Shown here piece after piece: positions 1,329-48,465 of a DNA stretch of 64,000 bases. The position numbers were made by a program, and so were the translations under genes. Position 1 is the first letter of the stretch. Every line of letters begins with the position of its first letter. The stretch covers positions 24,614,001-24,678,000 of the forward strand of contig OX597840.1 in NCBI GenBank assembly GCA_951406725.2, given 5' to 3'. This DNA is from Octopus vulgaris. Its lineage: Eukaryota. A model generated the notes under the pieces. It did no database searches and was not told the DNA's origin. It worked only from the letters and a program-made list of their open reading frames with translations.

Positions 1329-1378
1329 ATGGGAAAAAAAAGAAAAATTGCCCCCCACGAATATATACAATCAAGATT

Positions 1379-2230
1379 TTAAAATCTTGCAATCCCCTCT
1401 AACAGTTTTTCAAAAAGATCGCAACCTTCGTACCTTTTGCGCCACATAATTTCACAGAGACCGGAGTCAATCATAGAACTCTGCTTAACACAGGCCCAAG
1501 GGCCTTCCATCCGTGGCGACTTTGACTTTGACCGAGTGCCGTGCTTCTCCGCTTTATGGCGAAATTGATAACCCTCGATCTCCGGAATATGAGAGTAAGA
1601 TCTCCACAGATCACTAACGACCGTGGTTCCGGGGAGAACCGATTGGCGGATGCATTCTTCGAGTGTGTCGCGATCCCGACATGTTATTGTATAGAGAAAA
1701 ACCTGCTTGGCCTTGCGACACACTCCTTTATAGACCCACTGGTGGGGCGGCCGACCTCCAAGTCTACATTTCCTCCTCGAGAAGACTGTCTCGTCTATCT
1801 CGACAACCTTCCCAGGACCACCTATCTGAACTGGGTTGAGGAGTAAGTCCTCTGCACAGACTTCTCTCAAACAGCTGGTGTAGTCAACAGCTGCAGTGTG
1901 ACTCACACCCAGCTCGTCATAACAATAACGTATCGTGGTCAGCTTCTTGACCCAAGAATACAAGAAAAGGAGGATAGTTCGCAGAGGAAGCGAGGTGCCT
2001 TCCAGCCATGTACCTTTCCTAACAGATAGAGACTGGTCACAGCCTTTCCGTGTGCAGCGCCAGCGAACGCTCCGATCTTTCACTTTGCGTTTCATGAAAT
2101 GTCTCTTTTTACATCTTTTCTTTGGAGGTATTATACCCTTCTCTGCAAAGAAAGCTACCGCATCCGCTTCGGTCCTAATCGTGTTGAACAAATCCATGAG
2201 GCCATACGGTTTAGTTGCAGCCACAGCCAT
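1379..2230 (-). CDS. Merlin/IS1595-family transposase-derived protein (283 aa), intact ORF, candidate domesticated gene
   Basis: N-terminal Cys/His zinc-ribbon-like region (C..H...WRC....C), SVRKGTWLE, QIGGPGKVVEIDET (D1), LPGTTVVSDLWRSY (D2), MEGPW (E) and LCEIMWR. No stops or frameshifts, and no TIRs are visible enclosing it. Confidence 0.85.
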   Translation of the reverse strand: MAVAATKPYGLMDLFNTIRTEADAVAFFAEKGIIPPKKRCKKRHFMKRKVKDRSVRWRCTRKGCDQSLSVRKGTWLEGTSLPLRTILLFLYSWVKKLTTIRYCYDELGVSHTAAVDYTSCLREVCAEDLLLNPVQIGGPGKVVEIDETVFSRRKCRLGGRPPHQWVYKGVCRKAKQVFLYTITCRDRDTLEECIRQSVLPGTTVVSDLWRSYSHIPEIEGYQFRHKAEKHGTRSKSKSPRMEGPWACVKQSSMIDSGLCEIMWRKRYEGCDLFEKLLEGIARF

Positions 2231-2884
2231 ACTTCCTCAATACAACAGTAGGGGAAAAGTGCAAAGAGGCGATCGAAATGCAAAAAAAAAAAAAAAAAAA
2301 ATGTGGTATGCAACAGACAGCAAACAGAAATAAAATATTAACAGATTGGGGGGGAAAATAATCACAAAATTAACACGGGGAAATGTACAAAAGGGGGCGA
2401 TCAAAAAACAAGAAAAAAAAACGTGTAATATGAAACAGGTAGGAAACAAAAAAGTTAAATAGAAGTGTTGAAAATAATTACAGGTAGTGAGTAAAAATAT
2501 CCACTTATAAGTTAAAAAAATATAGTCAAGTTAAAGAACACACCAGAATAATTAATGTGCACGTGGTCGTGTTGCTCTCAGAAAACTATCGCAAACAGTA
2601 GGATTCTTCATGCGACAACATGGAATAAATTCTAAAGTACACGTGGTTCTGTTGCTCTTTGGGTACTTTCACAAACAGTAGAAGGTATCTTCAGGTATTT
2701 GTCGATTTGGTTAGAATAATCCAAATGCGACAACATGAAATAAATTCTAAAATACGAAAGCTTGTGAAAAATGTTGACAGTGTTCAGCGTGAGAAATTAC
2801 ACCAGTATATGAAGTTTCAAACAGTTCAGTTTAAAATATATAATCAAAAATATCTGTGAACCAAATTGAAGAGATTTAAATTAC

Positions 2885-3084
2885 CTCTTGCACATTTCAT
2901 TCAGCGAAATAAAGCAATGTTTTTTTCTTTCTCTCTGAGGAAATATATTATTGTAACTCAGCAATGTTTTATAGAAGCAGGATTATACGTTTGTAGAATA
3001 TCTTTGCAGAGTCTTTCAAACATGATACATATTGATGATTCTTTAAAAGTAAAAAATACTTTTTAGCCAATTTCAGGCGATTTT
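2885..3084 (-). promoter_or_regulatory. Predicted non-coding 5' exon homologous to the ZNF 5' UTR at ~10090-10293
   Basis: Minus strand shows acceptor tattctttcAG at 3086/3085 and donor GAG|GTAATT at 2885/2884. A ~120-bp core (2952-3075) appears identical to 10161-10284. Confidence 0.55.
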
Positions 3085-3142
3085 CTGAAAGAATACGAAA
3101 ATAATATAAGACATAGAATATGTTTAAAAGGTACAAATTTAC

Positions 3143-3378
3143 GGTACCAATTAATAATAGTAGTCACGGTGCGCGCACTCGCGATAGTTAGGCGTAACTA
3201 GTCGATCTTTACCTTGTGTTTTTGTTCTACTTACTTTGTTTAAAAAGAATTATTTAGTTTGTGTTTTATTTGTTTCAAATAAAATTATTTACTTTGCTAG
3301 ATAGTCGTTGTAGGATCGAGTAGTCACGACTAGCAAGCGCAGATGCGCGTACCGGGACCACGCTTCTTAAATAGTACC
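3143..3378. mobile_element. Merlin-type MITE (GGTAC family)
   Basis: Imperfect TIRs ggtac...ggtgcgcgca / tgcgcgtaccggga...gtacc with a perfect 9-bp TSD caaatttac (3134-3142 and 3379-3387). GG-initiated TIRs with 8-9 bp TSDs are characteristic of Merlin. Confidence 0.85.
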
Positions 3379-4585
3379 CAAATTTACAATTGTTTTGATA
3401 AATTGTAGACGTAAACCTTAAATTATAAATGAATGAGATACAGTAATTATAATAGCGACCCCTGGATATTAAATCCTTAACAAAACTCTATCACCCTCTC
3501 TCAAACATATATATATATATTTTTTTTTATCTAGTTTCAGCTCACGAGCTGTGGCCATGCTGGGGCACCGCCATTAATGTGAAGCTTTCACGGCGAAGGT
3601 AAAGAATACGCACACCCGGTGTTTAGGGACACGACGAAAACGGGTTGTGCGTTTTCTTTACCCCTGCAAATTGTAACACGATGGGGAGGGGTCAACGGAA
3701 TCCAGAGATTTATTTAAGGAATGGATAACAGCTCTCATACGAAAGAAAGAAAGATAATAATTAGGCGCAACTTCGGTATAAGTACCGGATATATTTCAAG
3801 AAAGGTTTTTTTTTTTATATGGAGGGTTTAGGGTTTAGGAGAAAAGGGTTTGTGTTATCTTCAGAAATGTACACAAAGTCACGTGTGTACCTATTCCGAA
3901 GGTTCGCCAATAATTACATTATTGTGTACCAAAATGCATGCAAATAAAGATAATTATGTGTTGGAGTGATGCAACAAAAAAAAAAAAAAAGGGTTAATAC
4001 TCACTAATAATCAGACGCCCTTACTCGCCAAAAAGGGTTACGGGTGCGTTTTCTTTACCCCTGCAAACTGTAACACGATGGGGAATTAACACGTTGTGCA
4101 AATGGTGATTTGTCACGGTTAATTTTAAGTGATATGTGTGTCTAGAAGGAAAAATATCAGCCTCTCGCTACATGTGGTTAACGAACACTGGGACGGAGTT
4201 AAAATGACGGATTAACTCGTCAACGTCAAAACAGCAACTGAAGTTGACCTCTCCGGTTTTGGCGCGAGTTGCTATGTGTATCCTTCCGCCGCAAGCTACA
4301 AGTGAGCGGAGTAACGTACCCTTGCACGAAATAGTTCGATGCCAGTGTACATAAGAATAACCAAAACTGCAATGGAATATCTAAAAGAAAGAAGGCTGTG
4401 GTCATGTATTTTCGTCTTTGTTTAGTGAAATAATTAATTTCTCTTGCACATTTCATTCAGTAAAATAAAAGTTTTTTTTTCCTCCCAGAGGAAATATTTT
4501 ACTGGGCCAAAATAATTCTATTATTTTATACACACGCTTTCCGTACGTATACGGAAAGCGTGTGTATAAAATAATAAATTATTTT

Positions 4586-5350
4586 GTATGTTAATTGTTT
4601 AAATTATTTTCCATTGCTTTAGTTTTTTTTACACGCGTAACAATTAAATTAATTTAACAATTAAGAAAAAAAAATTTAGGGTTAGGGTTAGTTACAGGAT
4701 GTTGTCTCAGTTTTAGACGCAGCAAATGATTTTAGCTCAAAAGAGAGCATAGGATTGGTTAAAATTCGAAAAATTAAACTACGTTAAACAAACAAATTAC
4801 AATTTTCTCAAGAAAGCCAAGTGAAAATAATGTTTTCTTTTGACACATATAGGCGCAGGAGTGGCTGTTTGGTAAGTAGCTTGCTAACCAACCACATGGT
4901 TCCGGGTTCAGTCCCACTGCATGGCATCTTGGGCAAGTGTCTTTTGCTATAGGCCCGGGCCAACCAATGCCTTGTGAGTGGATTTGGTAGACGGAAACTG
5001 AAAGAAGCCTGTCGTATATATGTATATATATATATATATATAAGTGTGTGTGAATATGTTTGTGTGTCTGTGTTTGTTCCCCCCCCTAGCATTGCTTGAC
5101 AACCGATGCTGGTGTGTTTACGTCCCCGTCACTTAGCGGTTCGGCAAAAGAGACCGACAGAATAAGTACTGGGCTTACAAAGAATCGGGGTCGATTTGCT
5201 TGACTAAAGGCGGTGCTCCAGCATGGCTGCAGTCAAATGACTGAAACAAGTAAAAGAGTGAAGAGTAAAATTCTCCAAGTATACGAAGTTTTAAAGTGTT
5301 TAGTTAACAAGAAATTTTGTTGAAATCTGGCCTTCAAAAGGAAAAGATCC
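4586..5350. mobile_element. Right half of a GGATC-family foldback MITE, interrupted by a SINE
   Basis: Matches the right arm of the complete copy at 48698-49339, including the ttagggttagggttag tract and the terminal ttcaaaaggaaaagatcc. Confidence 0.75.
4852..5265 (+). mobile_element. tRNA-derived SINE, family A (ggcgcaggagtggctgtgtggtaag head)
   Basis: A-box-like tggctgtgtgg, B-box-like ggttcagtccc, internal (TA)n(TG)n and an aagtaaaagag tail; more than 15 copies in the window. Probably one of the described Octopus SINE families (name not verified). Confidence 0.85.
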
Positions 5351-5431
5351 CTTTTCGGTTTCACCAGCAGTTTTTAAAAATAATATCCACGTAACTAAAA
5401 AATTTTAAACTTCGTATACAGGTAGAATGTG

Positions 5432-6140
5432 GGTACTACTAGTAAATACTGGTCCCGGTGCGCGCACACGCGCTAGCTAGTCGTAGGTAGTTGATCCTAC
5501 AACGACTTTTGCGTATGCAAGGAAGTTGATTGGCGCATGCAGAATAAAATAAAAGAATTTTTTAAAGAAAGTGAATAAATTATTTTTTAAAACAATGTAT
5601 ATGATTTTTTTACACAAATCAAATAAATAGCAAAGTAAATAAATTTTTTTAACTAAAAAAATTGTGGCTGTGTGGTAAGTAGCTTGTTTACCAACCACAT
5701 AGTTCCAGGTTCAGTCCCACTGCGTGGCACCTTGGGCAAGTGCCTTCTACTATAGCCTCAGGCCGACCAAAGTCTTGTGAGTGGATTTGGTAGACAGAAA
5801 CTGAAAGAAGCCCGTCGTATATATGTACATATATTTATATGCGTGTGCGTGTCTGTGTTTGTCCCCCTAGCATTGCTTGACAACCGATGCTGGTGTGTTT
5901 ATGTCTCCGTTACTTAGCGGTTCGGCAAAAGAGACCGATAGAATAAGTACTGGGCTTACAAAAGAATAAGTCCCAGGGTCGAGTTGCTCGATTAAAGGCA
6001 GTGCTCCAGCATGGCCACAGTCAAATGACTGAAACAAGTAAAAAGAGTAAAGAGTATTTTTTAAAACAATGTATATAATTTTTTTTACACAAATCAAACA
6101 AAGTAAATATAAAGCAAATAGCAAATAAAAAAAAAAAAAT
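5432..6140. mobile_element. Left part of a GGTAC-family Merlin MITE with a nested family A SINE (~5665-6053)
   Basis: Starts ggtactactagtaaatactggtcccggtgcgcgcac; no right TIR is seen. Confidence 0.65.
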
Positions 6141-6309
6141 TGAATATCTCACAGTTCTTGCAATTCATTCGAAAATGCCACCAAACAAAAAAATAAAATG
6201 TTGAAGTTCATTTGAGTTCCTCGAATGTGAACCATTCTGAACACACACAGACATATACATACATTCACACGCATGCATTTATACATATACACATGCATAC
6301 AAAATAAAT

Positions 6310-6647
6310 TAGAGATAAAAACCACTATTAGGCAAATCAAACAGTGAAAAACATAAACCAAAACATAGAAATAAAATTAATTAATATAATATACAAAATA
6401 TATAAAATATAAAATTCAGAATATAATTATAATTTAAAGTTAAAAATTTAAAATTATTAATTTATATTTATAAATTTATATATATATATATATATATATT
6501 TATTTTTTATTTATAAATATAAATTAATAATTTTTAATTTAAATTTAAATAATTTAAATTTTGAATTTTATATTTTATATATTATATTAATTAATTTTAT
6601 TTCTATGTTTTTCACTGTTTGATTTGCCTAATAGTGGTTTTATCTCT
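6310..6647. repeat. AT-rich imperfect palindrome (~165-bp arms, (TA)n centre)
   Basis: agataaaaaccactattaggcaaatcaaacagtgaaaaac is mirrored by gtttttcactgtttgatttgcctaatagtggttttatct. Confidence 0.85.
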
Positions 6648-6744
6648 ATTTGTATTTATACTGTAAAATTAGATTTAATCCTAAATCTAATTTTTCCCTG
6701 TAAGTTTGGATTTACTCCCTAATATTATTATTATATATATATAT

Positions 6745-6972
6745 TTCTTTACTACCCACAAGGGGCTAAACACAGAGGGGACAAACAAGGACAGACAAAC
6801 GGATTAAGTCGATTATATCGACCCCAGTGCGTAACTGGTACTTAATTTATCGACCCCGAAAGGATGAAAGGCAAAGTCGACCTCGGCGGAATTTGAACTC
6901 AGAACGTAACGGCAGACGAAATACGGCTACGCATTTCACCCGACGTGCTAACATTTCTGCCAGCTCACTGCC
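6745..6972 (-). mobile_element. tRNA-derived SINE, family B (gccgaggtcgactttgcctttcatcctttcggggtcgataaa core)
   Basis: Full monomer. The central domain resembles the Meta/Sauria-type SINE core (from recollection, not searched); many copies in the window. Confidence 0.8.
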
Positions 6973-7391
6973 TATTATATATATATAACATATATATACA
7001 CACACACACATGTGCATGTGTATACATATATGTGTTTTTTGTGCTCTCTTACATGATGGTTGTGATTGTGCATCGACATCAAATAAGCAGTTGTTAGTTT
7101 CCAGTCTGCATAAAATATGTCCTTGCTTGGAAACAGGTGAGGATTGGTGACAGGGAAGGCATCCAGCTGCAGAAAAATCTCCATCAATGAATTCCATCTG
7201 ATCCATTGAAGCATGGAAAAATGAATTTTAAATGATGATGATTATCATCATCATACTGCTATGCAAAAAACAGTTTGATAGTATTTATTCAGCATTACAT
7301 GTGTTTCATTACCTAATAGGAATTACAAACTTTTAGACAAAGAGAAAACATGTAAAATATCTCCTATAAGAAATTCTTCCTATATACATAT

Positions 7392-7800
7392 AGGAGTGGC
7401 TGTGTGGTAAGTAGCTTGTTTACCAACCACATGGTTCCGGGTTCAGTCCCACTGTGTGGCATCTTGGGCAAGTGTCTTCTGCTATAGCCCCGGGCCGACC
7501 AAAGCCTTGTGAGTGGATTTGGTAGACGGAAGCTGAAAGAAGCCTGTCGTATATATGTATATGTATATATGTATGTGTGTGTGTGTTTGTGTGTCTGTGT
7601 TTGTCCCCCTAGCATTGCTTGACAACCGATGCTGGTGTGTTTACGTCCCCGTCACTTAGCGGTTCGGCAAAAGAGACCAATAGAATAAGTACTGGGCTTA
7701 CAAAGAATAAGTCCCGGGGGGTCGACTTGTTCGAGTAAAGGCGGTGCTCCAGCATGGCCGCAGTCAAATGACTGAAACAAGTAAAAGAGTAAAAGAGAGA
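7392..7800 (+). mobile_element. Family A SINE
   Basis: Full head-to-tail match to 4852-5265. Confidence 0.85.
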
Positions 7801-8243
7801 GACGTGTGTGAGTGTGTGTGTGTGTGTGTATGCACAAGTGAGTGTATCCTTGTCCAGATATTATGTGATGTCCGTAAATGGCCATCACGACCGTCATACT
7901 TGTGCAGTTCTTCATTTCCAGTCCTCTGCGTAAAATATCTCACCAGGGAAAATATTTCCTTGCTTGGAAACAGGTGAGGATTGGTGACAAGAAAGGGTAC
8001 CCAGCTCAGGAAAATCTCCATCAATGAATTCCATCTGATCCATTGAAGCATGGAAAAGTGAATTTTAAATGATGATTATCATCATTGTAGTGATATGGTT
8101 CCTCTTCTGTATGAATGCAGTTATGTTTTAATAATTGATCATTTTCATAGATTGATTTAGCACAAATGTCTTAGGGTATGGTCATATCTTTCATAATAAT
8201 AAGACTGTATATAATTAATACACCATTTTGAAGGAATGATTAA

Positions 8244-8470
8244 CTCTTTCGTTACTGTATTTATTTTGAGATGCTCTGTGTTTCTTCCAATTATTTAGTA
8301 AAAAAATATAACAAAGAATTTAGTAAAATAACATTGTTATCATTAAGCTAGTGTTAGGAACATAAATTGTGACTAAAATTTGGTGGAAGATTTGAATTCA
8401 AAACTTATGAAAACAAGACATTTACACTAAAAAGCCAGAGCCGGTTTCAGCCAGGTTGGTAACGAAAGGG
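8244..8470. mobile_element. piggyBac-type MITE (TTAA target)
   Basis: TTAA|ctctttcgttac...gtaacgaaaggg|TTAA; related copies at 27500-28084 and 51742. Confidence 0.85.
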
Positions 8471-8491
8471 TTAAGCTCTGATATCAGACCG

Positions 8492-9865
8492 TTATGGTTT
8501 CTCCTCTGTATGAATATGTTTGTATTCAGTCAAGATGCTCTGAAGAGAGAATGATTTACCACAGATATCACAAAGAAATGGTCTCTCCTCTGTATGAACA
8601 TGGTTGTGTACAGTTAATTGTTGGTTTGTAGAGAATGCCTTGCCACAGATATCACTCTGGTATGGTTTCTCACCTACATGAACATACCTGTGCATAACTA
8701 ATTGTTTGTTTTGAGAGAATGATTTACCACAGATATCACACTGATATGGTGTTTCTCTTGTGTGTATAAGTTTGTGTGTAGTTAAATGGTGATTTCGACA
8801 GAATGATTTACTGCAGATATCACACTGATATGGTTTCTCACCTGTATGAATCCGTTTGTGTGTAGTTAAGGTACTGCCAGCAGAGAATGATTTACCACAG
8901 ATATCACAGTGATAAGGTTTTTCCCCTGTATGAACCCTTTTGTGCGTAGTTAAGCTACTGTCAACAGAGAATGATTTACCACAGATATCACAGTGATAAG
9001 GTTTCTCTCCTGTATGAACCCTTTTGTGCGTAGTTAAGCTACTGCTAACAGAGAATGATTTACCACAGATATCACAGTGATAAGGTTTCTCTCCTGTATG
9101 AACCCTTTTGTGCGTAGTTAAGCTACTGTCAACAGAGAATGATTTACCACAGATATCACAGTGATAAGGTTTTTCCCCTGTATGAATACGCTTGTGTTTA
9201 GTTAAGCTTTTGCTTTTAAAGAAAGATTTACCACAGATATCGCAGTGATATGGTTTCTCTCCTGTATGAATACGCTTGTGTTTAGTTAAGCTTTTGCTTT
9301 TAAAGAAAGATTTACCACAGATATCACAGTGATATGGTTTTTTTCCTGTATGAATACGTTTGTGTCGAGTGAAGCTACTGTCAACAGAAAATGATTTTCC
9401 ACAAATATCACAGTGATAAGGTTTTTCCCCTGTATGAATACGTTTATGTACAGTTAAATAGATATTTCGAGAGAATGATTTACCACAGATATCACAGTGA
9501 TATGGTTTCTCTCCTGTATGAACCCTTTTGTGCGTAGTTACCTCACTTCTTTCATAGAATGATTTATCACAAATGTCACACTGATATGGTTTGTCTCCTG
9601 TATGACTACGTTTATGTACTGTTAAATAGATATTTTGAGAGAATGATTTATTGCAGATATCACAGTGATATATTTTCTCTCTCGTATCAATTTGTTTATG
9701 ACTGAATAATTCTGAATCTTGACAGACTGATTTATCACAGGTATCACGGTGATTTTGTTTCTCATCTGTATGAATGCATTTGTGTCTAGTGAGTTCACCT
9801 TTTTCTAAAAATGACTCTTTGCAGATGTCACAGTCATATGATGATTTTTCCAATTGTTCCGACAT
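8492..9865 (-). CDS. C2H2 zinc-finger protein ZNF-1 (457 aa; 16 repeats, 13 canonical)
   Basis: Tandem CxxC...HxxxH units with TGEKPY linkers. Predicted acceptor tattctttcAG at 10295/10294. Confidence 0.93.
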   Translation of the reverse strand: MSEQLEKSSYDCDICKESFLEKGELTRHKCIHTDEKQNHRDTCDKSVCQDSELFSHKQIDTREKIYHCDICNKSFSQNIYLTVHKRSHTGDKPYQCDICDKSFYERSEVTTHKRVHTGEKPYHCDICGKSFSRNIYLTVHKRIHTGEKPYHCDICGKSFSVDSSFTRHKRIHTGKKPYHCDICGKSFFKSKSLTKHKRIHTGEKPYHCDICGKSFFKSKSLTKHKRIHTGEKPYHCDICGKSFSVDSSLTTHKRVHTGEKPYHCDICGKSFSVSSSLTTHKRVHTGEKPYHCDICGKSFSVDSSLTTHKRVHTGEKPYHCDICGKSFSAGSTLTTHKRIHTGEKPYQCDICSKSFCRNHHLTTHKLIHTRETPYQCDICGKSFSQNKQLVMHRYVHVGEKPYQSDICGKAFSTNQQLTVHNHVHTEERPFLCDICGKSFSLQSILTEYKHIHTEEKP

Positions 9866-10529
9866 CTCTTCAAGAAAAATTTAATGAATCCTTCAAGTTT
9901 ACGCGTCAATAACTTTTCAAAAATATTTCTCCTCTCACAAAAATATATGGATATTTTGCTTCTTTTTGCTTTAATAGTTAATTCCAAACAAATATCACTT
10001 TTCTTATATTTCTTCTGAATGTGATCAATGCCAATATTTAAAAATGTCGCAAATACTCTTTGGAAATCCATCAAAGTATATTTAAAAGAGAAAATTATCT
10101 CTTGCACATTTCAGACACAGAAGTAAAGAAATGCTTTCTCTCTCAGAGGAAATATTTTACTGTAACTCAGCAATGTTTTATAGAAGCAGGATTATACGTT
10201 TGTAGAATATCTTTGCAGAGTCTTTCAAACATGATACATATTGATGATTCTTTAAAAGTAAAAAATACTTTTTAGCCAATTTCATGTGATTTTCTGAAAG
10301 AATAGAAAAAATAATATAAGACACAGAATATATTTTAAATAATCTGAATATTGTTTCTGAAAATTATCTCCATTCACTTTGTGCATAGAAAAGATAAATT
10401 TGCTGCTTCAATTCTCCAGAATTACATTTGTTAAAGGACTTATACACATAAACATCAATCCTTAACCATCAGAAAGATTAGAAATACAGCCAAAATTTAA
10501 AATATCTAGGTGAAATGAAATAGGATCAT

Positions 10530-14740: not shown

Positions 14741-15775
14741 TATTTTGTAATCCATATCAATTGCACCACTGTTTCCTTTGTAGTGGTTAAGTGTGTATGT
14801 AAACCGATTCATAATTGAAAAGAATTTACTTACAGGGTTTGATTCGTTATGGGTACACTACATACAAAATACATTTGTGGGTGTCATATCAGGAATTAAT
14901 ATGTTGGTGTGTGTGCGTTGTTCATTTGATACAGTAGTCGATCGGTCTCTGCCAAAACCTTCTGTAGGTGGACTGTCTCGTCTGTCTGCCTGCCTCTGCT
15001 GTTTGTACCTAAATAGGTCGGCGCTTGTCCAGCTGAACTTCACATGACCTGCTGAGGTCGCAGGTCAAAGACAGACGATCAATCAATTTTTGTCAGGACA
15101 AAGCAAACCTTTTTTCGCGCCCATTAATCGTCGGCGGAATCGTTAGCACGCCGGGCGAAATGCGTAGCCGTATTTCGGCTGTCGTTACGTTGTGAGTTCA
15201 AATTCCGCCAAGGTCGACTTTGCCTTTCATCCTTTCCGTAAATTAAGTACCAGGGATCTTTTTGCTGAACCCCGGGGTCGTAAACACAACAGCATCGGTT
15301 GTCAAGCGATGTTGTGGGGACAAACACAGACATAACACATGCATACATATATACGACGGGCTTCTTTCAGTTTCCATTTACCAAATCCACTCACAAGGCT
15401 TTGGTTGGCCCGAGGCTATAGTAGAAGACACTTGATCAAGGTACCACGCAGTGGGACAGAACCCAGAACCATGTGGTTCGTAAGCAAGCTACTTACCACA
15501 GCCACTCCTACGCATATATTCACATTTTCCAAGATAAATTCACGATTTTCTTACTACACGAACACTTTATATTAATTTATTCACTCTTCTCTACACTTCT
15601 TTCGCAGTTTATCTATGATTTTTTTCTTCTGGTAAAATATATACTAAAAGCACGGCGCATTTTCGATGAAATTGGGGAGTGTATGAAATTATCTTGGGTT
15701 ATGCGAAACCCCGAAACGAAAACAAAATATCGTTCATAATTTCTGTTTGATTTTATAAATAATATGAATTTTTAA

Positions 15776-16008
15776 TACTTAAGAAGAGTGGTCTCGGTGC
15801 GCGCACTCGCGCAAGCTAGTCGATCCTACGACTACCTGGCAAAGTAAATAAAACACTAAATAAATAATTTTTTAAAAACAAAGTAAATAAAACACACAAA
15901 CACAAGGTAAATAATTAAAAAAAAAAAAAATACAAAAACACAAAGGATCGACTAGCTAGTGCGGGTGCACGAGTGCGCGCACCGGGACCACTCTTCTTAA
16001 GTAGTACC
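15776..16008. mobile_element. Merlin-type MITE (GGTAC family), left tip eroded
   Basis: tacttaagaagagtggtctcggtgcgcgcactcg pairs with cgagtgcgcgcaccgggaccactcttcttaagtagtacc. Confidence 0.8.
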
Positions 16009-16284
16009 TGTTTTTTCTTTTTTTAATTAAAGTTAGCAAAATATTGATTTCAAATGTCGGCAAAGGCTCACAATTTTGAGGGAGAGGTGAGTCAATTACA
16101 CACCCCCATCTGTGTTCAACTTATTTTATTGATTCCGAAAGGAAAAAGTTGAACTTGGCGGGATTTGAAATCAAATCATAAACACAGACGGAATATTGCT
16201 GAGTATTTTTGCCCAGCATGCGAACGATTCTGCCAGTTCGCTACCTTAAAGTTATCTAAATATTATATTACATTTTTATAACAG

Positions 16285-16350
16285 ACTTACCGCATGATCT
16301 TCACGTCTGCTTCCTTAAATTCTGGTCTCGCTGCATCGACGTAGCGATAC
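16285..16350 (-). promoter_or_regulatory. Candidate non-coding first exon and donor for ZNF-1
   Basis: CpG-rich unique stretch ending in a consensus donor GCG|GTAAGT (intron starts at 16290). Its link to ZNF-1 is an inference. Confidence 0.35.
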
Positions 16351-16353
16351 GGA

Positions 16354-16558
16354 GGGGAGGTAAATCTAGTTTTACCAAAACTACTGTTAAGGACATAAGG
16401 GGCCACACGATAGCGCCTGTTTTTAATCAGATGTTTTTTTTTATAGTGCACCACTCGTTAGGGTTAGGGTTAGGGTCACACAGAAAACGGGGGGGGGGGT
16501 ACAGATTTCTTCCGCCCACTTACACAAGGGCCGCTTGGTAAAACTAGAGTACCTCCCC
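16354..16558. mobile_element. Small TIR element containing (TTAGGG)3
   Basis: ggggaggta..tctagttttaccaa pairs with ttggtaaaactagagtacctcccc; no TSD found. Confidence 0.6.
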
Positions 16559-16880: not shown

Positions 16881-17629
16881 CTCTTATTATAATATATATA
16901 TATATGTGTGTGTGTGTATGTCCCCCTAGCATTGCTTGACAACCGATGCTGGTGTGTTTACGTCCCCGTCACTTAGTGGTTCGGCAAAAGAGACCGATAG
17001 AATAAGTACTGGGCTTACAAAGAATAAGTCCCGGGGTCAAGTTGCTTGATTACAGGCGGTGCTCCAGCATGGCCGCAGTCAAATGACTGAAACAAGAAAA
17101 AGAGTAAAAGAGAGTATATATATATATATATGTAGATACACATACATATCTATCTATATATATATATATTTTTTTTTCTTGGGACCATAAGTTACTAAAG
17201 ATATCACAATGATATCTTTCCTGTACAAATGTGTTTGTGTTTAGATAAGTGACAATTTTCAGAGAATGATTTTATGCGTGTATATACTGTATATACTTGT
17301 GGATAGGTCACACCCTTAGTTTGGGATTATCGAAGTAGGTATTTGTAGTTTACTTACAGATAGGTTGTAGTATAATCTGGGGTATTACTCGGCCCTTTTT
17401 TTAACATAAATATAACTAATATTTGTTAAGTATTATCAAATACTCTTTTACTTGTTTCAGTCATGTGACTGCGGCCATGCTGGAGCACCGCCTCTAGTCG
17501 AGAAAATCGACCCCGGGACTTATTCTTTGTAAGCCCAGTACTTATTCTATTGGTCTCTTTTGCCAAACCGCTAAGTGACGGGGACGTAAACACACCAGCA
17601 TCGGTTGTCAAGCAATGTTAGGGGGACAA

Positions 17630-20860: not shown

Positions 20861-20945
20861 ATTAACCCTGAAGAAATCTCTCAAAACTGATGTCTGTGGA
20901 TATACTCTATAATGGTTCAATTTCCTGTCTTATGATATCCATCTC

Positions 20946-21176
20946 TGCGACGATTTCATCTCAATCGAAGGAGAGGAGCTTTCTCCGTCCGGGTTGCAGA
21001 TCCGTGGAATAAGCTGCCAGACGAGATAGTGAAGATGCCGACGACCGCTCGGTTCAAAGTCTCTCTTGACCAGAAATGGCCTGAACTCTTTGCATCAACA
21101 CTCTCCCTGTACATAACTCCATGTCCCCCTACACGGCCTTGCTTTTTGCTTTTTGAGCCAAAAAATTAACTTAACT
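20946..21176 (+). mobile_element. CR1-like LINE 3' fragment inserted in the ZNF-2 5' UTR
   Basis: Translates as RRFHLNRRRGAFSVRVADPWNKLPDEIV...FKVSLD with a (taac) tail. TSD atctc at 20941-20945 and 21177-21181; the empty site is seen in the paralogs near 46165 and 56790. Confidence 0.85.
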
Positions 21177-21585: not shown

Positions 21586-22028
21586 AAGGGGTGACATGGA
21601 GGGGTGGTACCTTCGATGGGGGAAACCACGTAATACTCTTAGGCTCACACACTTGTGGCTCCAAGTATGTGCATGCATGCAACGGCAACCACAACTCGGT
21701 AAACTGTTTCGAGGTGAGGGTGATGGAACTGTTAAGTGACTCTTGGTGAGGGTGAGGGCTTGCATGTGAAAAATAGATCCGGCGGACATTGCCGAAGAAG
21801 CCTTCATGGTTGAACGTAGAGGAAGGCAGTATAAGCAACACACACACCGTCTCCATCCCCCGATCGTTTTGGCCTGGTCTTGCTACAGGATTGAACGTGG
21901 TTCGTGGACGAGAGAATGAGGATCATCGTGCGCAAGTGTTTCTCACTCGAAAGAAAACCCACCGCGCAAGTCCTCAGTCACCCTTCACTTAGAAATCACT
22001 CGATCTGACGGACGAACGTATTCAAAGC
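21586..22028. mobile_element. Unclassified GC-rich insertion
   Basis: Absent at the homologous position of the paralog (~45830) and flanked by the direct repeat cataaata. Confidence 0.55.
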
Positions 22029-22114
22029 ATAAATACACACACAACCATATATAGCATAAACGTTTACAATGTGCTTTGTGATGCTAATACAAATAACACG
22101 TGCTTTAGATATTT

Positions 22115-38788: not shown

Positions 38789-39500
38789 AATTCTGCAACA
38801 ATGTTTTCTAGACATTTGCCAAGATCATAGACTTCAACAACTTCCTAACAAGACTTAAAAAGTTCAAGACTTTACCCCAGGGAACGAAACCACAATCTTA
38901 CAGTCGTGAGTCCAACACCCTAACCACTGAGCCACGCAACCCCATAAATGACTGAATTACAAAATGCAATCACGTTACAGTTTTATTGACATTTCAATAA
39001 CCCACAATCATAGGAGATAACAGAGGTGTTCCAGATATGACCATCCTGTCAATATATTGTTTAATAATAGATAAATATTTATCATATTGCAAACCACAGG
39101 CAGTCAATGTATTTGTTTATTTATTAATTTGTTTCAATGAACTGCGGCCATGCTGGAGCAATTCTGCGATCCAGAGGGGAGCAAACTGATTCCAATGTTT
39201 GTTTTAAGTCTGGTGCTTATTCTAACAGTCCCTTTTTGTTGAACTGCTATGTCATAGGGTGTGAACAGATAAATAGTTTGTCAAGTGGTGAAAGACAAAC
39301 AGATGAACAGAAACGCAAAGATACATTCACATATTTACATATAGGGCTTCACACAGTTTCCAGGTACCATGTTTACTCATGAATGTCTCATACAAAAAAA
39401 ATTTTTTTTAAATTGTGGTTTTCCAAAACTGCTCAACCCTTTAGCATTTAAACCAGTTATATCTGGCCAAAATATTCAACCTGTTTTATGTTGAGGTATT

Positions 39501-40856
39501 CTACAACTTCACATTTGCAAAGGTTTCACAATTTAAAGCCTTCTCTCCTGTGTGGGTTTGTTTGTGTTTATTCAAGTAACTTTTATAGGTAAATGTTTTC
39601 TCACAGATATCACAATGATAGGGCCTTTCTCCAGTGTGACTACGAATATGAACAATAAGATCGGAATTATCAAAGAAAGATTTCCCGCAAATTTCACAGT
39701 GAAATGTTTTTTCTCCATCATGTTTCCGCCTATGTCTTCTTAAATCACTGTTATTCACGTAAGTTTTTCCACAGATTTCACAGCAGAATGGTTTTTTCCC
39801 CGTATGTAGTAACTTGTGTCTTGTTAAATTACTGCTGGAGTAAAAATATTTTCCACAAATATCACAATGGGACGGTTTTTCCCCAGTGTGTACCCTTTTG
39901 TGACTAACAAGGTGTGATTTATTAAAAAAGGATTTTCCACAGATTTCACAATGGAACGGTTTTTCACCTGTATGTACCTTTTTATGACTAACGAGATATA
40001 AATTTAACGAGAATGATTTCCCACAGATGTTACAATGATAAGGTTTCCCTTCGGTGTGAATTCTTTTGTGAACTCTAAGACGAGAATTGGTAGTGAATGA
40101 TTTTCCACAGGTGTCACAATGATGAGGTTTTTCTCCAGTGTGAACCTGTACATGAGTAACAAGTATTGAGTTCTTCATAAAAGACTTCCCACAAACTTCG
40201 CAGCGGAATGGTTTCCCACGATTGTGAATTCGTCTGTGACTCGTTAGATTACTTTTATCAACAAAAGATTTTCCACATATATCACAACAGAAAGGTTTTT
40301 CTCCAGGGTATAAGCATTTGTGCCTTGTTAAATAGCTATTTTCCACAAATGATTTTCCACACGTTTCACAGTGGAAGGGTTTTTCTCCTGTGTGGCTTCG
40401 TACATGAACAACAAGCCGAGAATTATGCGGAAAAGATTTTCCACATATTTGACAGTCAAAAGAATTTTCTCCGGTATGTGTCCGTTTGTGACTTCTTAAA
40501 TAGCAATTATCAACAAAAGATTTTCCACATATATCACAGTGATAAGGTTTTTCTCCAGTGTGACTACGCTTGTGGAGAATCAGGTGGTATTTCTGATTCA
40601 ATGACTTTCCACAAATATCACACTGAAATGGTTTTTCCCCAGTATGTAATCTTTTATGTTTTTTTAAATTACTGGAATTCACAAAAGTCTTTTCACATAT
40701 TTCACAATTAATATTTCTCTTTGACGACATTCCTTCACAGGACGAAGTTTTTTTACCATAAGAGAATAATTTCTTACCACCAGACGTCTGTTTAACTGAA
40801 TCTTTAATGTCAGAAACGTTTGTGTTAGAAGTGTCCGAGTGATTACCATCCTCCAT
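39501..40856 (-). CDS. C2H2 zinc-finger protein ZNF-4 (451 aa, 14 repeats; MEDGNHSDTS subfamily)
   Basis: Finger 5 lacks the last His (HKCLY). Predicted acceptor at 41229/41228. Confidence 0.95.
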   Translation of the reverse strand: MEDGNHSDTSNTNVSDIKDSVKQTSGGKKLFSYGKKTSSCEGMSSKRNINCEICEKTFVNSSNLKKHKRLHTGEKPFQCDICGKSLNQKYHLILHKRSHTGEKPYHCDICGKSFVDNCYLRSHKRTHTGENSFDCQICGKSFPHNSRLVVHVRSHTGEKPFHCETCGKSFVENSYLTRHKCLYPGEKPFCCDICGKSFVDKSNLTSHRRIHNRGKPFRCEVCGKSFMKNSILVTHVQVHTGEKPHHCDTCGKSFTTNSRLRVHKRIHTEGKPYHCNICGKSFSLNLYLVSHKKVHTGEKPFHCEICGKSFFNKSHLVSHKRVHTGEKPSHCDICGKYFYSSSNLTRHKLLHTGKKPFCCEICGKTYVNNSDLRRHRRKHDGEKTFHCEICGKSFFDNSDLIVHIRSHTGERPYHCDICEKTFTYKSYLNKHKQTHTGEKALNCETFANVKL

Positions 40857-41300
40857 ATTAATTCTGAAGAATTTCTTGAAAACTTATGTCTGTGGTTATA
40901 ATCTCTATTATGGCTCAGCTTATTGTCCTATGATACCAACATCATGAGATTCTCTTTACGTATAAGGAAAATATGCTATGTAGATTTTTTTCTGCAGAAC
41001 ACTTAGGATGTTTAATGCAAGTTGTGATATCTCTAAGTGTCACACATTGTGGAAACAAAATGACCTCTATATCTATGTTGAATAATAATTCTGGATATAG
41101 TTAATGCAAGTTATGTAGACTTCAAAGGGAGAGAGAGGAGGGCATCCGTAAATGATTTATAGCATTTGTTCTGGTGGAATCGGTGTCTTTCTTTGTATGG
41201 TGGGTTGTAATGGAACAGTCAGCACAACTGAAACGAAAGAAAATATATAATGTAACAAGATTGATTTTGGAGAGATGAAACTCGTGTCTGTGTGCATGTA

Positions 41301-43950: not shown

Positions 43951-45207
43951 GATTATATGACTTTTAAAATTTTACAAGATATAATGAAATCGAATGAGAT
44001 ACAACAAGGACGAAATACAAACATGAAATGAAGCAGAGAGATGTGATTTTTTATTACCCACAAGGGGCGAACATAGAGGGGACAATGCAATCTGATTTGG
44101 GGGTCAGACTTACGAATGATAAATACACAAAATGAAATTTTAAAATTAACACAAAATGACAATATAATTAAAAGCAAAAATTCGAATGAGAGAACAGACC
44201 AGAAGACATTACGGATGGAGTGGGCGGGGCGGGTTACGCTCCGACCCCGCGAGCCCTATTCTAGGGCTGGGACCTTTGTATACAGACTTATGACAGGTTC
44301 GCGAGGAATCTTTCATTTCCAGCATCCTCGCAACATGCAACCATCCTCTCTTTATTTGCTTTCCGTATTTAATTCTAAAATAAATTCACTTTGGCCCGTA
44401 CTTTGAATACGAAAGTAAGGCTACAAAACTATAGCTGTTGTTAATACTACTTTAATTGCAATGGGAGAAAGAGAGAAGGAAAAATCCAAAATTTCGGTAT
44501 TTTTAGGGAAAATATTCTGTTAGGGGCGATAAAAATCACTTTGTGTTTTATGTGGAATCGAATACTCTCAGGTTAGTCTTCATCGGAAATATATTTCTCT
44601 AATCTATTTATTTCTCATATCCCCTGCTGTAATTTATAACAAAACATGTTTGTCTCTATGTGGCCTAACTACAGATTAGTGCCCCACGAATTTGATTCTA
44701 AATAAATTCGTGAGAAGTGTATATCTGGCATTCTTTCGATTTGTTTTGGTCTCATCGAGTCAAATCGAAAGAATGCCGTATATCTTTATAATGAAATTCT
44801 ACTAAGACACTTTACCGATGAGTTAGATTACAATTGTGTTGTGAGGCATGCATTTGTTGACGGAAAGTCCGTTATATAAGGCTAATAAAATTTAGAGAAA
44901 CATTTTGTAGATGTTTCAGATCGTTCCTTCTGTCGCCCCTCCGACATTGTTGCTATCGATTTTCCTAAGTTTATGTGTTTTTTTAATGTTTGAAGCATCA
45001 ACATTACGTATTGTACACACTTGGAAATATATTTCTGCGTTTTAAAACACTTCCACGGGGAAGAGAGGTTGTTGCCGTAGTAACAAGCCAACGAAAAGAA
45101 TACAATGAGTTTGTGTCTGTTAGAAATGAGACATGATGGGAAGGTGGCACTCTTCCTCTTAGCTTACTTTTAAATGAGAAAGGATGTATTATTTCTATTG
45201 ATATGAG

Positions 45208-45695: not shown

Positions 45696-46250
45696 ATGTA
45701 CTCGACTCATCCCCCACCTCCCCAAACTGCCCTTATGGCAAAATTTGGAAATAATTATTTTTATTGATAGCACAACACACATCGTAATCTTTTATACTAT
45801 GTGGTTAATCTTGTGTGTGTTTATGTGTATGTACGTGCACACAGACACGAGTTTCATCTCTCCAAAATCAATCTTGTTACATTATATATTTTCTTTCGTT
45901 TCAGTTGTGCTGACTGTTCCATTACAACCCACCATACAAAGACACCGATTCCACCAGAACAAATCATTTATGGATGCTCTCTGTCTCTCTTTTAAGCCTA
46001 CATAATTTACTTTAACTATATCCAGAATTATTAACATAGATATAGAGGTCTTCTTGTCTACACTATGTGTGCCACTTAGAGATATCTCAGCCAACAAAAA
46101 ACATTGTGTTATGCAGAAAATAAATCTACATAGCATATTTTCCTTACATGTAAACAGAATCTCATGACATGGATATCATAAGACCAGAAATTAAACCATA
46201 AGAGATTATATCCACAGACATCAACTTCCAAGAAATTCTTCAGAATTAAT

Positions 46251-47354
46251 ATGGATGATGGTAATCACTCGGACACTTCTAACACAAACGTTTCTGATAA
46301 TGAAGATTCAGTTAAACAGACATCTGGTGCTAAGAAACCATTCTCTTATGATAAAAAACCTTCGTCCTGTAAAGGAAAGTCGTCAAAGAGAAATTTTAAT
46401 TGTGAAATATGTGAAAAGACTTTTGTGAATTCCAGTAATTTAAAAAACCACAAAAGATTACATACTGGGGAAAAACCATTTCAGTGTGAGATTTGCGGAA
46501 AGTCATTGAATCAGAAATACCACCTGATTCTCCACAGGCGTAGTCACACTGGAGAAACGCCTTATCACTGTGATATATGTGGAAAATCTTTTATTGATAA
46601 TTACTATTTAAGAAGTCACAAACGGACACATACCGGGGAAAATACTTTTGACTGTCAAATATGTGGAAAATCTTTTCCGCATAATTCTCGGCTTGTTGTT
46701 CATGTACGAAGCCACACGGGAGAAAAACCCTTCCACTGTGAAACGTGTGGAAAATCATTCACTACCAATTCTCGTCTTAGAGTTCACAAAAGAATTCACA
46801 CCGAAGGGAAACCTTATCATTGTAACATCTGTGGGAAATCATTCTCGTTAAATATATATCTTGTGGGTCATAAAAAGATTCACACAGGAGAAGAACCGTT
46901 CCATTGTGAAATCTGTGGAAAATCCTTTTTCGATAAATCAAATCTTGTTAGTCACAAAAGGGTACACACTGGTGAAAAACCATCCAATTGTGATATTTGT
47001 GGAAAATATTTTTACTCCAGCAGTAATTTAACAAGACACAAATTACTACATACGGGGAAAAAACCATTCTGCTGTGAAATCTGTGGAAAAACTTACGTGA
47101 ATAACAGTGATTTAAGAAGACACAGGCGGAAACATGATGGAGAAAAAACATTCCACTGTGAAATTTGCGGAAAATCTTTCTTTGATAATTCCGATCTTAT
47201 TGTTCATATTCGTAGTCACACTGGAGAAAGGCCGTATCATTGTGACATTTGTGAGAAAACATTTACCTATAAAAGTTACTTGAATAAACACAAACAAACC
47301 CACACAGGAGAGAAGGCTTTAAATTCTGAAACGTTTGCAAATGTGAAGTTGTAG
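46251..47354 (+). CDS. C2H2 zinc-finger protein ZNF-5 (367 aa, 11 fingers), inverted duplicate of ZNF-4
   Basis: Near-identical to ZNF-4 minus 84 aa (three fingers). Predicted acceptor at 45903/45904. Confidence 0.9.
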   Translation: MDDGNHSDTSNTNVSDNEDSVKQTSGAKKPFSYDKKPSSCKGKSSKRNFNCEICEKTFVNSSNLKNHKRLHTGEKPFQCEICGKSLNQKYHLILHRRSHTGETPYHCDICGKSFIDNYYLRSHKRTHTGENTFDCQICGKSFPHNSRLVVHVRSHTGEKPFHCETCGKSFTTNSRLRVHKRIHTEGKPYHCNICGKSFSLNIYLVGHKKIHTGEEPFHCEICGKSFFDKSNLVSHKRVHTGEKPSNCDICGKYFYSSSNLTRHKLLHTGKKPFCCEICGKTYVNNSDLRRHRRKHDGEKTFHCEICGKSFFDNSDLIVHIRSHTGERPYHCDICEKTFTYKSYLNKHKQTHTGEKALNSETFANVKL

Positions 47355-47788
47355 AATACCTCAACATAAAACAGGTTGAATATTTTGGCCAGATATAACC
47401 AGTTTAAATGCTAAAGGGTTGAGCAGTTTTGGAAAACCACAATTTAAAAAAATTTTTTTGTATGAGACATTCATGAGTGAACATGGTACCTGGAAACTGT
47501 GTGAAGCCCAATATGTGAATATGTGCTACCTATAAAAGTTACTTGAATAAACACAAACAAACCCACACAGGAGAGAAGGCTTTAAATTGTGAAACGTTTG
47601 CAAATGTGAAGTTGTAGAAAACCTCCATGTATACATTGTATTGGAGCAGATTTATGAGGGTGGAACATGTTGAAATTTATTCTCTTTGACTTATTGTGTT
47701 TTGAGGTGTGACTGTTTGGCCATGTGGCTTGGGTTGCCAAGTTGGATGCTGTGCATTGAGTTCTGTTCCCTGAGCATGTGGCTGGGAT

Positions 47789-48465
47789 AGTTAGTTAGTT
47801 AGTTAGTTAGTCAGTTAATTTTTTGGCTCAAAAAGCAAAAAGCAAGGCCATGTAGGGGGACATGGAGTTATGTACAGGGAGGGTGTTCATGTAAAGAGTT
47901 CAGACCATTTCTGGTCAAGAGAGGCTTTGAACCGAGCGGTCGTCGGCATCTTCACCATCTCGTCCGGCAGCTTATTCCACGGATCCGCAACCCGGACGGA
48001 GAAAGCCTCTCTCCTTCGATTGAGATGAAATCGTCGCAGATAGCGCTTTTCGGAGTGACCCCGCAGCCGACACTCTGGAGCAGGAGTGAAGAACAGCTCT
48101 TCGAGAGGTTACACTTTCCGCTTATGATGTTGTGAGGCCATGTAGGGGGACATGGAGTTATGTACGGGGAAGGTGTTCATGTAAAGAGCTCAGGCCATTT
48201 CTGGTCAAGAGAAACTTTAAACTGAGCGGTCGTCGGCATCTTCACCATCTCGTCCGGCAGCTTATTCCATGGATCCGCAACCCGGACGGAGAAAGCTCCT
48301 CTCCTTCGATTGAGATGAAATCGTCGCAGATAGAGCTTTTCTGAGTGACCCCGCAGCTGACGTTCTGGGGCAGGAGTGAAGAACAGCTCTTTCGAGAAGT
48401 TACACTTTCCGCTTATAATGTTGTGAGCAAGAATGAGGTCACCACGGCGTCGTCATTTTTCTAGA
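47789..48465 (-). mobile_element. CR1-like LINE 3' fragment, tandemly duplicated (~290-bp unit)
   Basis: RRRGDLILAHNII...LRGHSEKLYLRRFHLNRRRGAFSVRVADPWNKLP with a (taac)n tail; same family as 20946-21176. Confidence 0.85.

Follow-up and report, generated by a model that had tools for sequence, protein, structure and literature searches.

In the accessible text of 10.1101/2020.05.07.082677, which describes known captures of transposases by host genes, a splice acceptor lies directly ahead of the transposase open reading frame (ORF) in eight of nine cases; the same paper describes KRABINER, in which ZNF112 is joined to a mariner transposase. For Merlin/IS1595 elements, the accessible text of PMC8101967 describes terminal inverted repeats (TIRs) ending in GG together with a target-site duplication (TSD), and takes an intact ORF without TIR or TSD as a criterion for suggesting domestication, applied there to protist copies. 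Tandem clusters of C2H2 zinc-finger (ZNF) genes have been described in octopus (PMC12513265 and PMC10547256, in the parts available). A link between the expansion of ZNF genes and transposons has been proposed for the octopus lineage. The locus described here lies in a stretch of 64,000 nucleotides (nt) of Octopus vulgaris DNA (assembly GCA_951406725.2, contig OX597840.1, positions 24,614,001 to 24,678,000), referred to as the window, in which a Merlin/IS1595-type transposase-derived ORF is preceded by a duplicated piece of the predicted 5′ leader of a zinc-finger gene, ZNF-1.

The reading preferred here, to which we would give slightly less than an even chance, is that a 260-nt piece, comprising the acceptor and the opening 200 nt of the predicted ZNF-1 leader, was copied locally, 7.2 kb downstream, and that the copy serves as a spliced, non-coding exon of what is likely a domesticated Merlin gene. 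The following features bear on it directly (lengths of proteins in amino acids, aa):

1379–2230, minus strand: ORF of 283 aa derived from a Merlin/IS1595-type transposase; no inverted repeats detected beside it
2232–2237, minus strand: candidate acceptor AGs just ahead of the ATG at 2230, GAG ending at 2236 and AAG ending at 2232
2238–2503, minus strand: AG-free T-rich tract, 268 nt between AGs, ending 6 nt before the ATG; predicted intron 3′ end
2236–2884, minus strand: predicted intron, 649 nt, unique in the window and without homology to the ZNF-1 leader
2869–3129, minus strand: block A, with acceptor flank, predicted 200-nt non-coding exon (3084–2885) and donor GT at 2884
2952–3075, minus strand: core of block A, 124 nt, identical to 10161–10284, containing upstream ORFs of 21 and 4 codons
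4436–4504, minus strand: block C, remnant of the block's 3′ third without the donor, its 5′ side cut beside a palindrome and a miniature inverted-repeat transposable element (MITE)
8492–9865, minus strand: ZNF-1 ORF, 457 aa, tandem C2H2 fingers, 84-nt unit in 15.5 copies
9866–10293, minus strand: predicted ZNF-1 leader, 428 nt, continuous with the ORF in one exon and containing five upstream ATGs
10086–10339, minus strand: block B, made up of the acceptor flank and nucleotides 1–200 of the ZNF-1 leader; the dinucleotide at 10099 is AT, not GT

Blocks A and B are a real local duplication. Aligned on the same strand, they are identical in 234 of 262 columns (89%; E 9e-96 by within-window BLAST), and both contain the acceptor TTCTTTCAG (minus strand), the first exon base being 3084 in A and 10293 in B. 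The longest identical run is the 124-nt core; all 21 differences (16 substitutions and 5 gaps in 257 columns) fall outside it, 7 in the 55 columns on its 5′ side (13%) and 14 in the 78 columns on its 3′ side (18%), and none of 200,000 permutations contained an identical run as long. Block C, whose match extends from 4436 or 4441 to 4504, is 77–81% identical over 69–70 nt, and no further copies were present among within-window BLAST matches at E ≤ 0.01. These results uphold much of the first-pass annotation of this DNA, which had described two homologous blocks in the same orientation with the same acceptor, an apparently identical core of about 120 bp between diverged flanks, a third fragment at about 4433–4504, and a GT in the transposase copy, against AT in the ZNF-1 copy, that would close an exon of 200 nt.

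The homologous unit consists of the predicted exon with some 45 nt on the acceptor side and a further 15 nt beyond the donor position, an extent that corresponds to the shape of a putative exon with its splice flanks. No homology was detected by eight shuffle tests beyond the block ends or between two CpG-rich segments (4076–4401 and 16226–16476) described below: for the sequence downstream of A and B, 73 of 500 shuffles score as high as the real comparison, and for the upstream side, across a Merlin-type MITE at 3143–3378, 251 of 500 do so, while the lowest value of the eight, 7 of 500, is caused by the centre of a TAACCC/poly-A repeat. At the donor position, A reads GT, B reads AT and C reads AA (GAG followed by AAATT, not a donor). 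The G at 2884 is probably the derived state, because two of the three copies, B and C, have A at the first donor position and only one has G.

Block B heads a predicted leader of the build usual for the neighbouring ZNF genes, as judged by the resemblance of the ZNF-1 leader in length and number of ATGs to those of Z4, Z5 and Z6, in which the acceptor lies 371, 346 and 335 nt ahead of the ATG with 5, 7 and 7 upstream ATGs, respectively. Leader copying is ordinary in this cluster, since four of the six ZNF ORFs (Z2, Z4, Z5 and Z6) carry a duplicated leader recognizable by profile comparison. The profile of that leader gives no nhmmer match to A, B or C at E ≤ 10, and remote likeness between the two was rejected for this reason. 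The block itself precedes none of the other five ZNF genes in the window. Of the suggestion that a ZNF scaffold was duplicated and its payload replaced by a transposase, the local duplication of a leader piece is supported; within the window the block is no general ZNF 5′ scaffold. The possibility that the leader hides a coding domain was also rejected: a 101-aa ORF overlapping block B (10110–9805) has two matches among 1.84 billion proteins, both repetitive unnamed ORFs, and these were taken as noise. An upstream ORF of 88 codons (9805–10071) overlaps the ZNF-1 start in another frame, and no real homologues of it were found. For residues 1–75 of ZNF-1, none of three candidates was significant among proteins of 251–800 aa.

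Between block A and the transposase ORF, the acceptor before 2235 is GAG, a weak form, and a second AG (AAG) follows 4 nt on, neither of which the first-pass annotation mentions. The AG-free tract ranks seventh among 6888 AG intervals in the window, the six longer ones being of lower complexity (0.09–0.32 versus 0.43); among composition-matched shuffles 840 of 100,000 are AG-free, and at five other acceptors measured the AG-free tract is 50–93 nt long. The donor at 2884 agrees with the consensus at 7 of 9 positions, a grade found at 107 sites among the 41,556 nt left unmasked (2.6 per kb per strand), and after-the-fact arithmetic gives about 0.04 donors of this grade expected within 15 nt of the block end. 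A junction from 2885 to 2235 would give an ORF of 290 aa, with 7 codons added ahead of the ORF's own ATG, and a junction from 2885 to 2231, at the second AG, would likewise add in-frame codons. Homology confined to the exon and its splice flanks, together with an AG-free tract that ends 6 nt before the ATG, favours a real intron at 2236–2884, and the odds that the donor at 2884 is used appear about even. Among public sequencing runs, no RNA run was listed as containing 1340–3140, a result that counts neither way. No host protein domain is fused in frame, the predicted exon adding at most 7 codons, and no longer fused form of the transposase was found among 1358 candidates of 497–2000 aa, which is weak evidence.

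The absence of any change from the core extends to the third positions of its 21-codon upstream ORF. Constraint and gene conversion had both been proposed to account for the identity. Gene conversion fits best, because the tract is sharply bounded and lies between direct repeats 7.2 kb apart, and recent conversion between A and B is likely to have made the core identical; selection on a regulatory leader, or an effect of assembly polishing, may also have done so. A small nucleolar RNA or other structured RNA in the block was considered and rejected, since the core has no Rfam match at E ≤ 1 and its fold z-scores (0.69 and 0.06) are unremarkable. An exact 30-nt pattern from the core had no matches in metagenome contigs, an uninformative source for octopus sequence. 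Beside block C lies a near-perfect palindrome of 80 nt (4508–4586), whose matches to Rfam microRNAs score far under the curated values and are read as hairpin matches only.

The protein encoded at 1379–2230 matches PF12762 (DDE_Tnp_IS1595) at E 9.9e-6 and 26.1 bits, just under the curated cut-off of 27, and the domain is carried by 25 of 29 homologues. Its likely orthologue is O. sinensis LOC115225578, annotated as uncharacterized and recorded as two isoforms (XP_036370339.1 and XP_036370340.1), with 277 of 283 residues identical to isoform X1 (98%); the protein cluster of this gene holds only three records from two loci, one of them on a 43-kb contig. Protein records of this kind do not reveal the leader block. 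In a tree of 33 rows the seven octopus rows form one clade at 100/100, comprising three paralogues that are 54–62% identical, with LOC115225419, LOC115222964, O. vulgaris CAI9738362.1 and O. bimaculoides LOC106884119 as paralogues of the window ORF. One paralogue keeps an intact 296-aa frame in each of three species, O. sinensis, O. vulgaris and O. bimaculoides, and 259 of 296 residues are identical in the widest pair, O. sinensis and O. bimaculoides. The ORF is likely a domesticated gene, because it is 98% identical to LOC115225578 and belongs to an octopus-only clade of apparently single-copy paralogues. An autonomous Merlin element would be expected to have GG-ended TIRs and a TSD of 8–9 bp around its ORF; a scan with the TIR motif of the local MITE family found no inward-facing TIR pair around 1379–2230, although strongly decayed ends could be missed in this way.

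Residues D146, D207 and E242, which we take from the family motif to be the catalytic positions, are invariant in 13 aligned rows. The conserved TVNH block located between D207 and E242, of which TVN is present in 10 of the 13 rows, is missing from the window protein and from both O. sinensis isoforms, and the window protein lacks nine residues after E242, where length varies (275, 283 and 285 aa). Because of the loss of these two segments, the transposase is predicted to be poor or dead for cutting and to be kept for DNA binding. In the structure model, residues 228–252 have a predicted local distance difference test (pLDDT) score below 50; this, the missing TVN motif, the lack of a TIR pair around the ORF in a region with six Merlin-type TIRs, the annotated orthologue and the intact paralogue are counted as signs of domestication. 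A fold search returned weak integrase and transposase rows, none at E ≤ 0.001. Four further residues invariant in the 13 rows, C40, H44, C59 and C64 (ORF residues 40–64, region 2039–2113), form a possible zinc-binding motif; the ORF has no Pfam zinc finger match at E ≤ 0.001, and in the accessible text of PMC8101967 Merlin is without the zinc finger domain of IS1595. Among the paralogues, LOC115222964 and its orthologues, at 296 aa in three species, have changes around the first D and the E, and LOC115222964 is likely a second domesticated gene, better supported than that of the window. In the predicted O. vulgaris model CAI9738361.1, residues 1–149 of a Merlin paralogue are joined to a C2H2 remnant that is identical to ZNF-1 at 20 of 35 positions, a hint, if the model is correct, that Merlin paralogues also adjoin ZNF sequence elsewhere.

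Where transcription of the two genes might begin is suggested by two further segments, and the sequence between block A and the nearer of them contains a Merlin-type element:

4076–4401, no strand assigned: unique CpG-rich segment, candidate promoter or first exon of the transposase gene, with a candidate donor at 4319
16226–16476, minus strand: unique CpG-rich segment, 9 CpG per 150 nt; candidate for the first exon of ZNF-1, the donor GTAAGT being at 16290
3143–3378, no strand assigned: Merlin-type MITE inserted immediately ahead of block A; its inverted repeats end in GG and it is bounded by a target duplication of 9 bp (3134–3142 and 3379–3387), the pattern given in PMC8101967

With 12 CpG per 150 nt, the segment at 4076–4401 exceeds the 99th percentile for unmasked windows (11 CpG; 582 windows). 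By analogy, transcription of the transposase gene probably starts separately, some 1 kb ahead of block A. This segment is not homologous to the segment at 16226–16476 (364 of 500 shuffles score as high). There are ten unique CpG-rich segments in the window, among them 15001–15151, 21751–22101 (upstream of Z2) and 44101–44376 (between Z4 and Z5). The donor reported at 16290 is indeed present as GTAAGT on the minus strand, and it is one candidate donor, for ZNF-1 only. The MITE just upstream of block A has three donor-like sites on the minus strand, at 3292, 3234 (8 of 9 positions) and 3212, which could feed the acceptor at 3084.

The history that would lead to this arrangement is as follows. 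The 5′ part of ZNF-1 would have been duplicated in tandem, leaving copies A and C, and copy A would have acquired a Merlin element behind it, whose inverted repeats then disappeared. A single A-to-G change would have created the GT donor at 2884, from which the exon could be spliced to an AG immediately ahead of the transposase start codon, where the long AG-free tract ends, with transcription beginning near 4076–4401 and not at 16290, and recent gene conversion between A and B would have made the core identical.

Several observations weigh against this reading. Copies A, B and C all part within about 15 nt of one point, and this includes B versus C, neither of which has the donor; a repeat end or an ancestral closed exon therefore fits as well. 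The first candidate acceptor ahead of the transposase ORF is the weak GAG, which is a rare acceptor form, and the AG-free tract contains a T run and an internal duplication and was chosen after the fact. In O. sinensis, the two RefSeq isoforms each start with the ATG of the ORF itself, without the extension that the junction would make, which fits an unspliced leader or another exon, unless the O. sinensis bases differ or the annotation took a later start. Among the 29 matches there is no O. bimaculoides orthologue of the window paralogue. The structure model is built on no more than 13 rows. Merlin is abundant in Octopus, with 191 sequences in O. bimaculoides according to the accessible text of PMC8101967, and for this reason intact ORFs need not be domesticated.

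Some of these observations would also be expected if block A were an idle leftover, that is, a duplicate of the ZNF-1 leader hit by a Merlin insertion, with the GT at 2884 unused and the core made identical by plain conversion; any ZNF payload would have been lost or would lie beyond the left edge of the window, and the transposase gene would be transcribed with a leader that is unspliced or comes from another exon. The RefSeq start sites and the GAG acceptor agree with such a history, as do the commonness of donors of this grade and a region full of Merlin ends and insertions in which C is a similar orphan without a donor. We nevertheless regard it as unlikely, given a donor located at the end of the homology, an AG-free tract that ends just before the ATG, and an acceptor flank of A that has been kept with 7 differences in 55 columns. 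The common parting point could alternatively mark the fixed end of a dispersed repeat, of which A, B and C would be separate insertions carrying splice signals; ZNF-1 would have taken B into use, and the transposase gene perhaps A. It fits this view that the downstream flanks of the three copies are unrelated and start at nearly the same base, and that 64% of the bases of the window recur within it, but all of the copies lie on one strand within 7.5 kb, with none in the remaining 54 kb, and neither an inverted repeat, a poly-A end nor a target duplication was seen at the block, which, together with the lack of an Rfam match, makes a dispersed repeat distinctly unlikely.

The order of events might also be the reverse, the ancestor being a closed 200-nt exon with a GT donor, as in A; the donor would have been lost from B, whose exon now continues into ZNF-1, and C would have decayed. 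An ancestral exon end would explain why three copies diverge at the same point, and the octopus Merlin clade is old, as its 54–62% identity suggests. This direction is improbable, however, in that an adenine at the donor position in both B and C needs one shared loss or two separate ones, and ZNF genes here normally have a long leader in the exon that carries the coding sequence. The first-pass annotation had further suggested that one upstream promoter, for instance with the donor at 16290, serves ZNF-1 and the transposase by alternative splicing. A single first exon would then be joined to 10293 or to 3084, and one gene would give two proteins, as in KRABINER/ZNF112. The good donor in a unique CpG-rich segment, the common strand and the near-identical acceptors are in keeping with this arrangement, for which the accessible text of 10.1101/2020.05.07.082677 offers a precedent. 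Against it stand the unique segment some 1 kb ahead of A, which is closer and richer in CpG, and the 13.2-kb intron that would be required, which would skip the whole terminal exon of ZNF-1 and the three polyadenylation signals that lie within 1.5 kb after its stop. Splicing from 16291 to 3084 is the least likely of the readings because of this segment and these signals, and we consider it highly improbable.

The preferred reading, of a duplicated leader piece as a spliced exon of the transposase gene, can be extended to a broader proposal, which as a whole is unlikely: a few domesticated Merlin genes of octopus would form a family associated with C2H2-ZNF loci, the member in the window having been wired in by a duplicated non-coding leader exon of a ZNF gene, to which one base change gave a donor. 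Conversion or selection would keep the core, with its upstream ORF, identical, and a ZNF protein and a DNA-binding protein derived from a transposase would in this way share post-transcriptional control, possibly restraining the abundant Merlin MITEs.

The remainder of the window is an octopus C2H2 zinc-finger cluster, with six long ZNF ORFs and many copies of short interspersed nuclear elements and MITEs; none of nine window proteins had an exact-sequence match in the protein collection. Z4 and Z5 (39396–40906 and 46201–47459) are head-to-head inverted duplicates, 90–95% identical, with the CpG-rich segment at 44101–44376 between them. The Z2 leader is split by an insertion at 20944–21171 that is 95% identical to 47813–48040. 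The profile of the Z2, Z4, Z5 and Z6 leaders has additional matches near 47800–48330, which are read as the insertion common with the Z2 leader because the Z5 and Z6 leaders alone have no match there. Decayed remnants of single zinc fingers occur at 8090–8239, downstream of ZNF-1, and at 17140–17272, downstream of ZNF-2. Six Merlin-type TIRs lie between 1272 and 16008, and a second Merlin-type MITE, at 15773–16008, is related to that at 3143–3378 and has a truncated left TIR. Positions 1–1272 contain nested Merlin remains, including a minus-strand transposase frame (about 713–45) that is only 32% identical to the ORF at 1379–2230; after it comes an apparent plus-strand 3′ end of another Merlin, with a TIR at 1272, and this end recurs inverted at 5432–6241.

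If the predicted junction is used, the locus would be a transposase capture by a non-coding exon, in which a ZNF gene lends its leader and not a protein domain, and the route of capture would be invisible to searches for fusion proteins. If it is unused, what is seen is ordinary local duplication and gene conversion in a repeat-rich cluster. The locus also points to a clade of Merlin genes in octopus that are likely domesticated and that appear to be undescribed: the literature searched, most subscription journals lying beyond the search, yielded no account of such genes, and the identifier LOC115225578 occurs in none of the papers covered. Merlin, IS1595 and ISXO2 do not occur in the accessible text of PMC10027918; the supplements of PMC8101967 list octopus Merlin sequences and may bear on novelty.

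Compared with the octopus clusters of PMC12513265 and PMC10547256, in so far as their available text describes them, the window likewise contains tandem ZNF ORFs, six in 64 kb; it differs in that the ZNF-1 leader is unrelated to the leader common to four of the other genes and its duplicate precedes a transposase instead of a ZNF ORF. With the Merlin/IS1595 elements in the accessible text of PMC8101967, including protist copies without TIRs, the window ORF has in common PF12762, the retained D-D-E residues and an intact frame without TIR or TSD. In contrast to them, it is without the TVNH block and the nine residues, and it appears to be a single copy with a likely orthologue in a second species; that text counts O. 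bimaculoides Merlin and discusses no domesticated ones there. KRABINER, as described in the accessible text of 10.1101/2020.05.07.082677, resembles the present locus in having a transposase ORF in a C2H2-ZNF locus, a candidate acceptor directly ahead of it, and a predicted reach from a ZNF-derived exon. Splicing was shown for KRABINER and is predicted from sequence here, and the transposase here is of the Merlin type, a name with no occurrences in the main text of that paper. The exon at the present locus would, moreover, be non-coding, contributing a few codons at most; it is a duplicate and not the parent gene's own exon, and the new splice site would be a donor within the host-derived exon.

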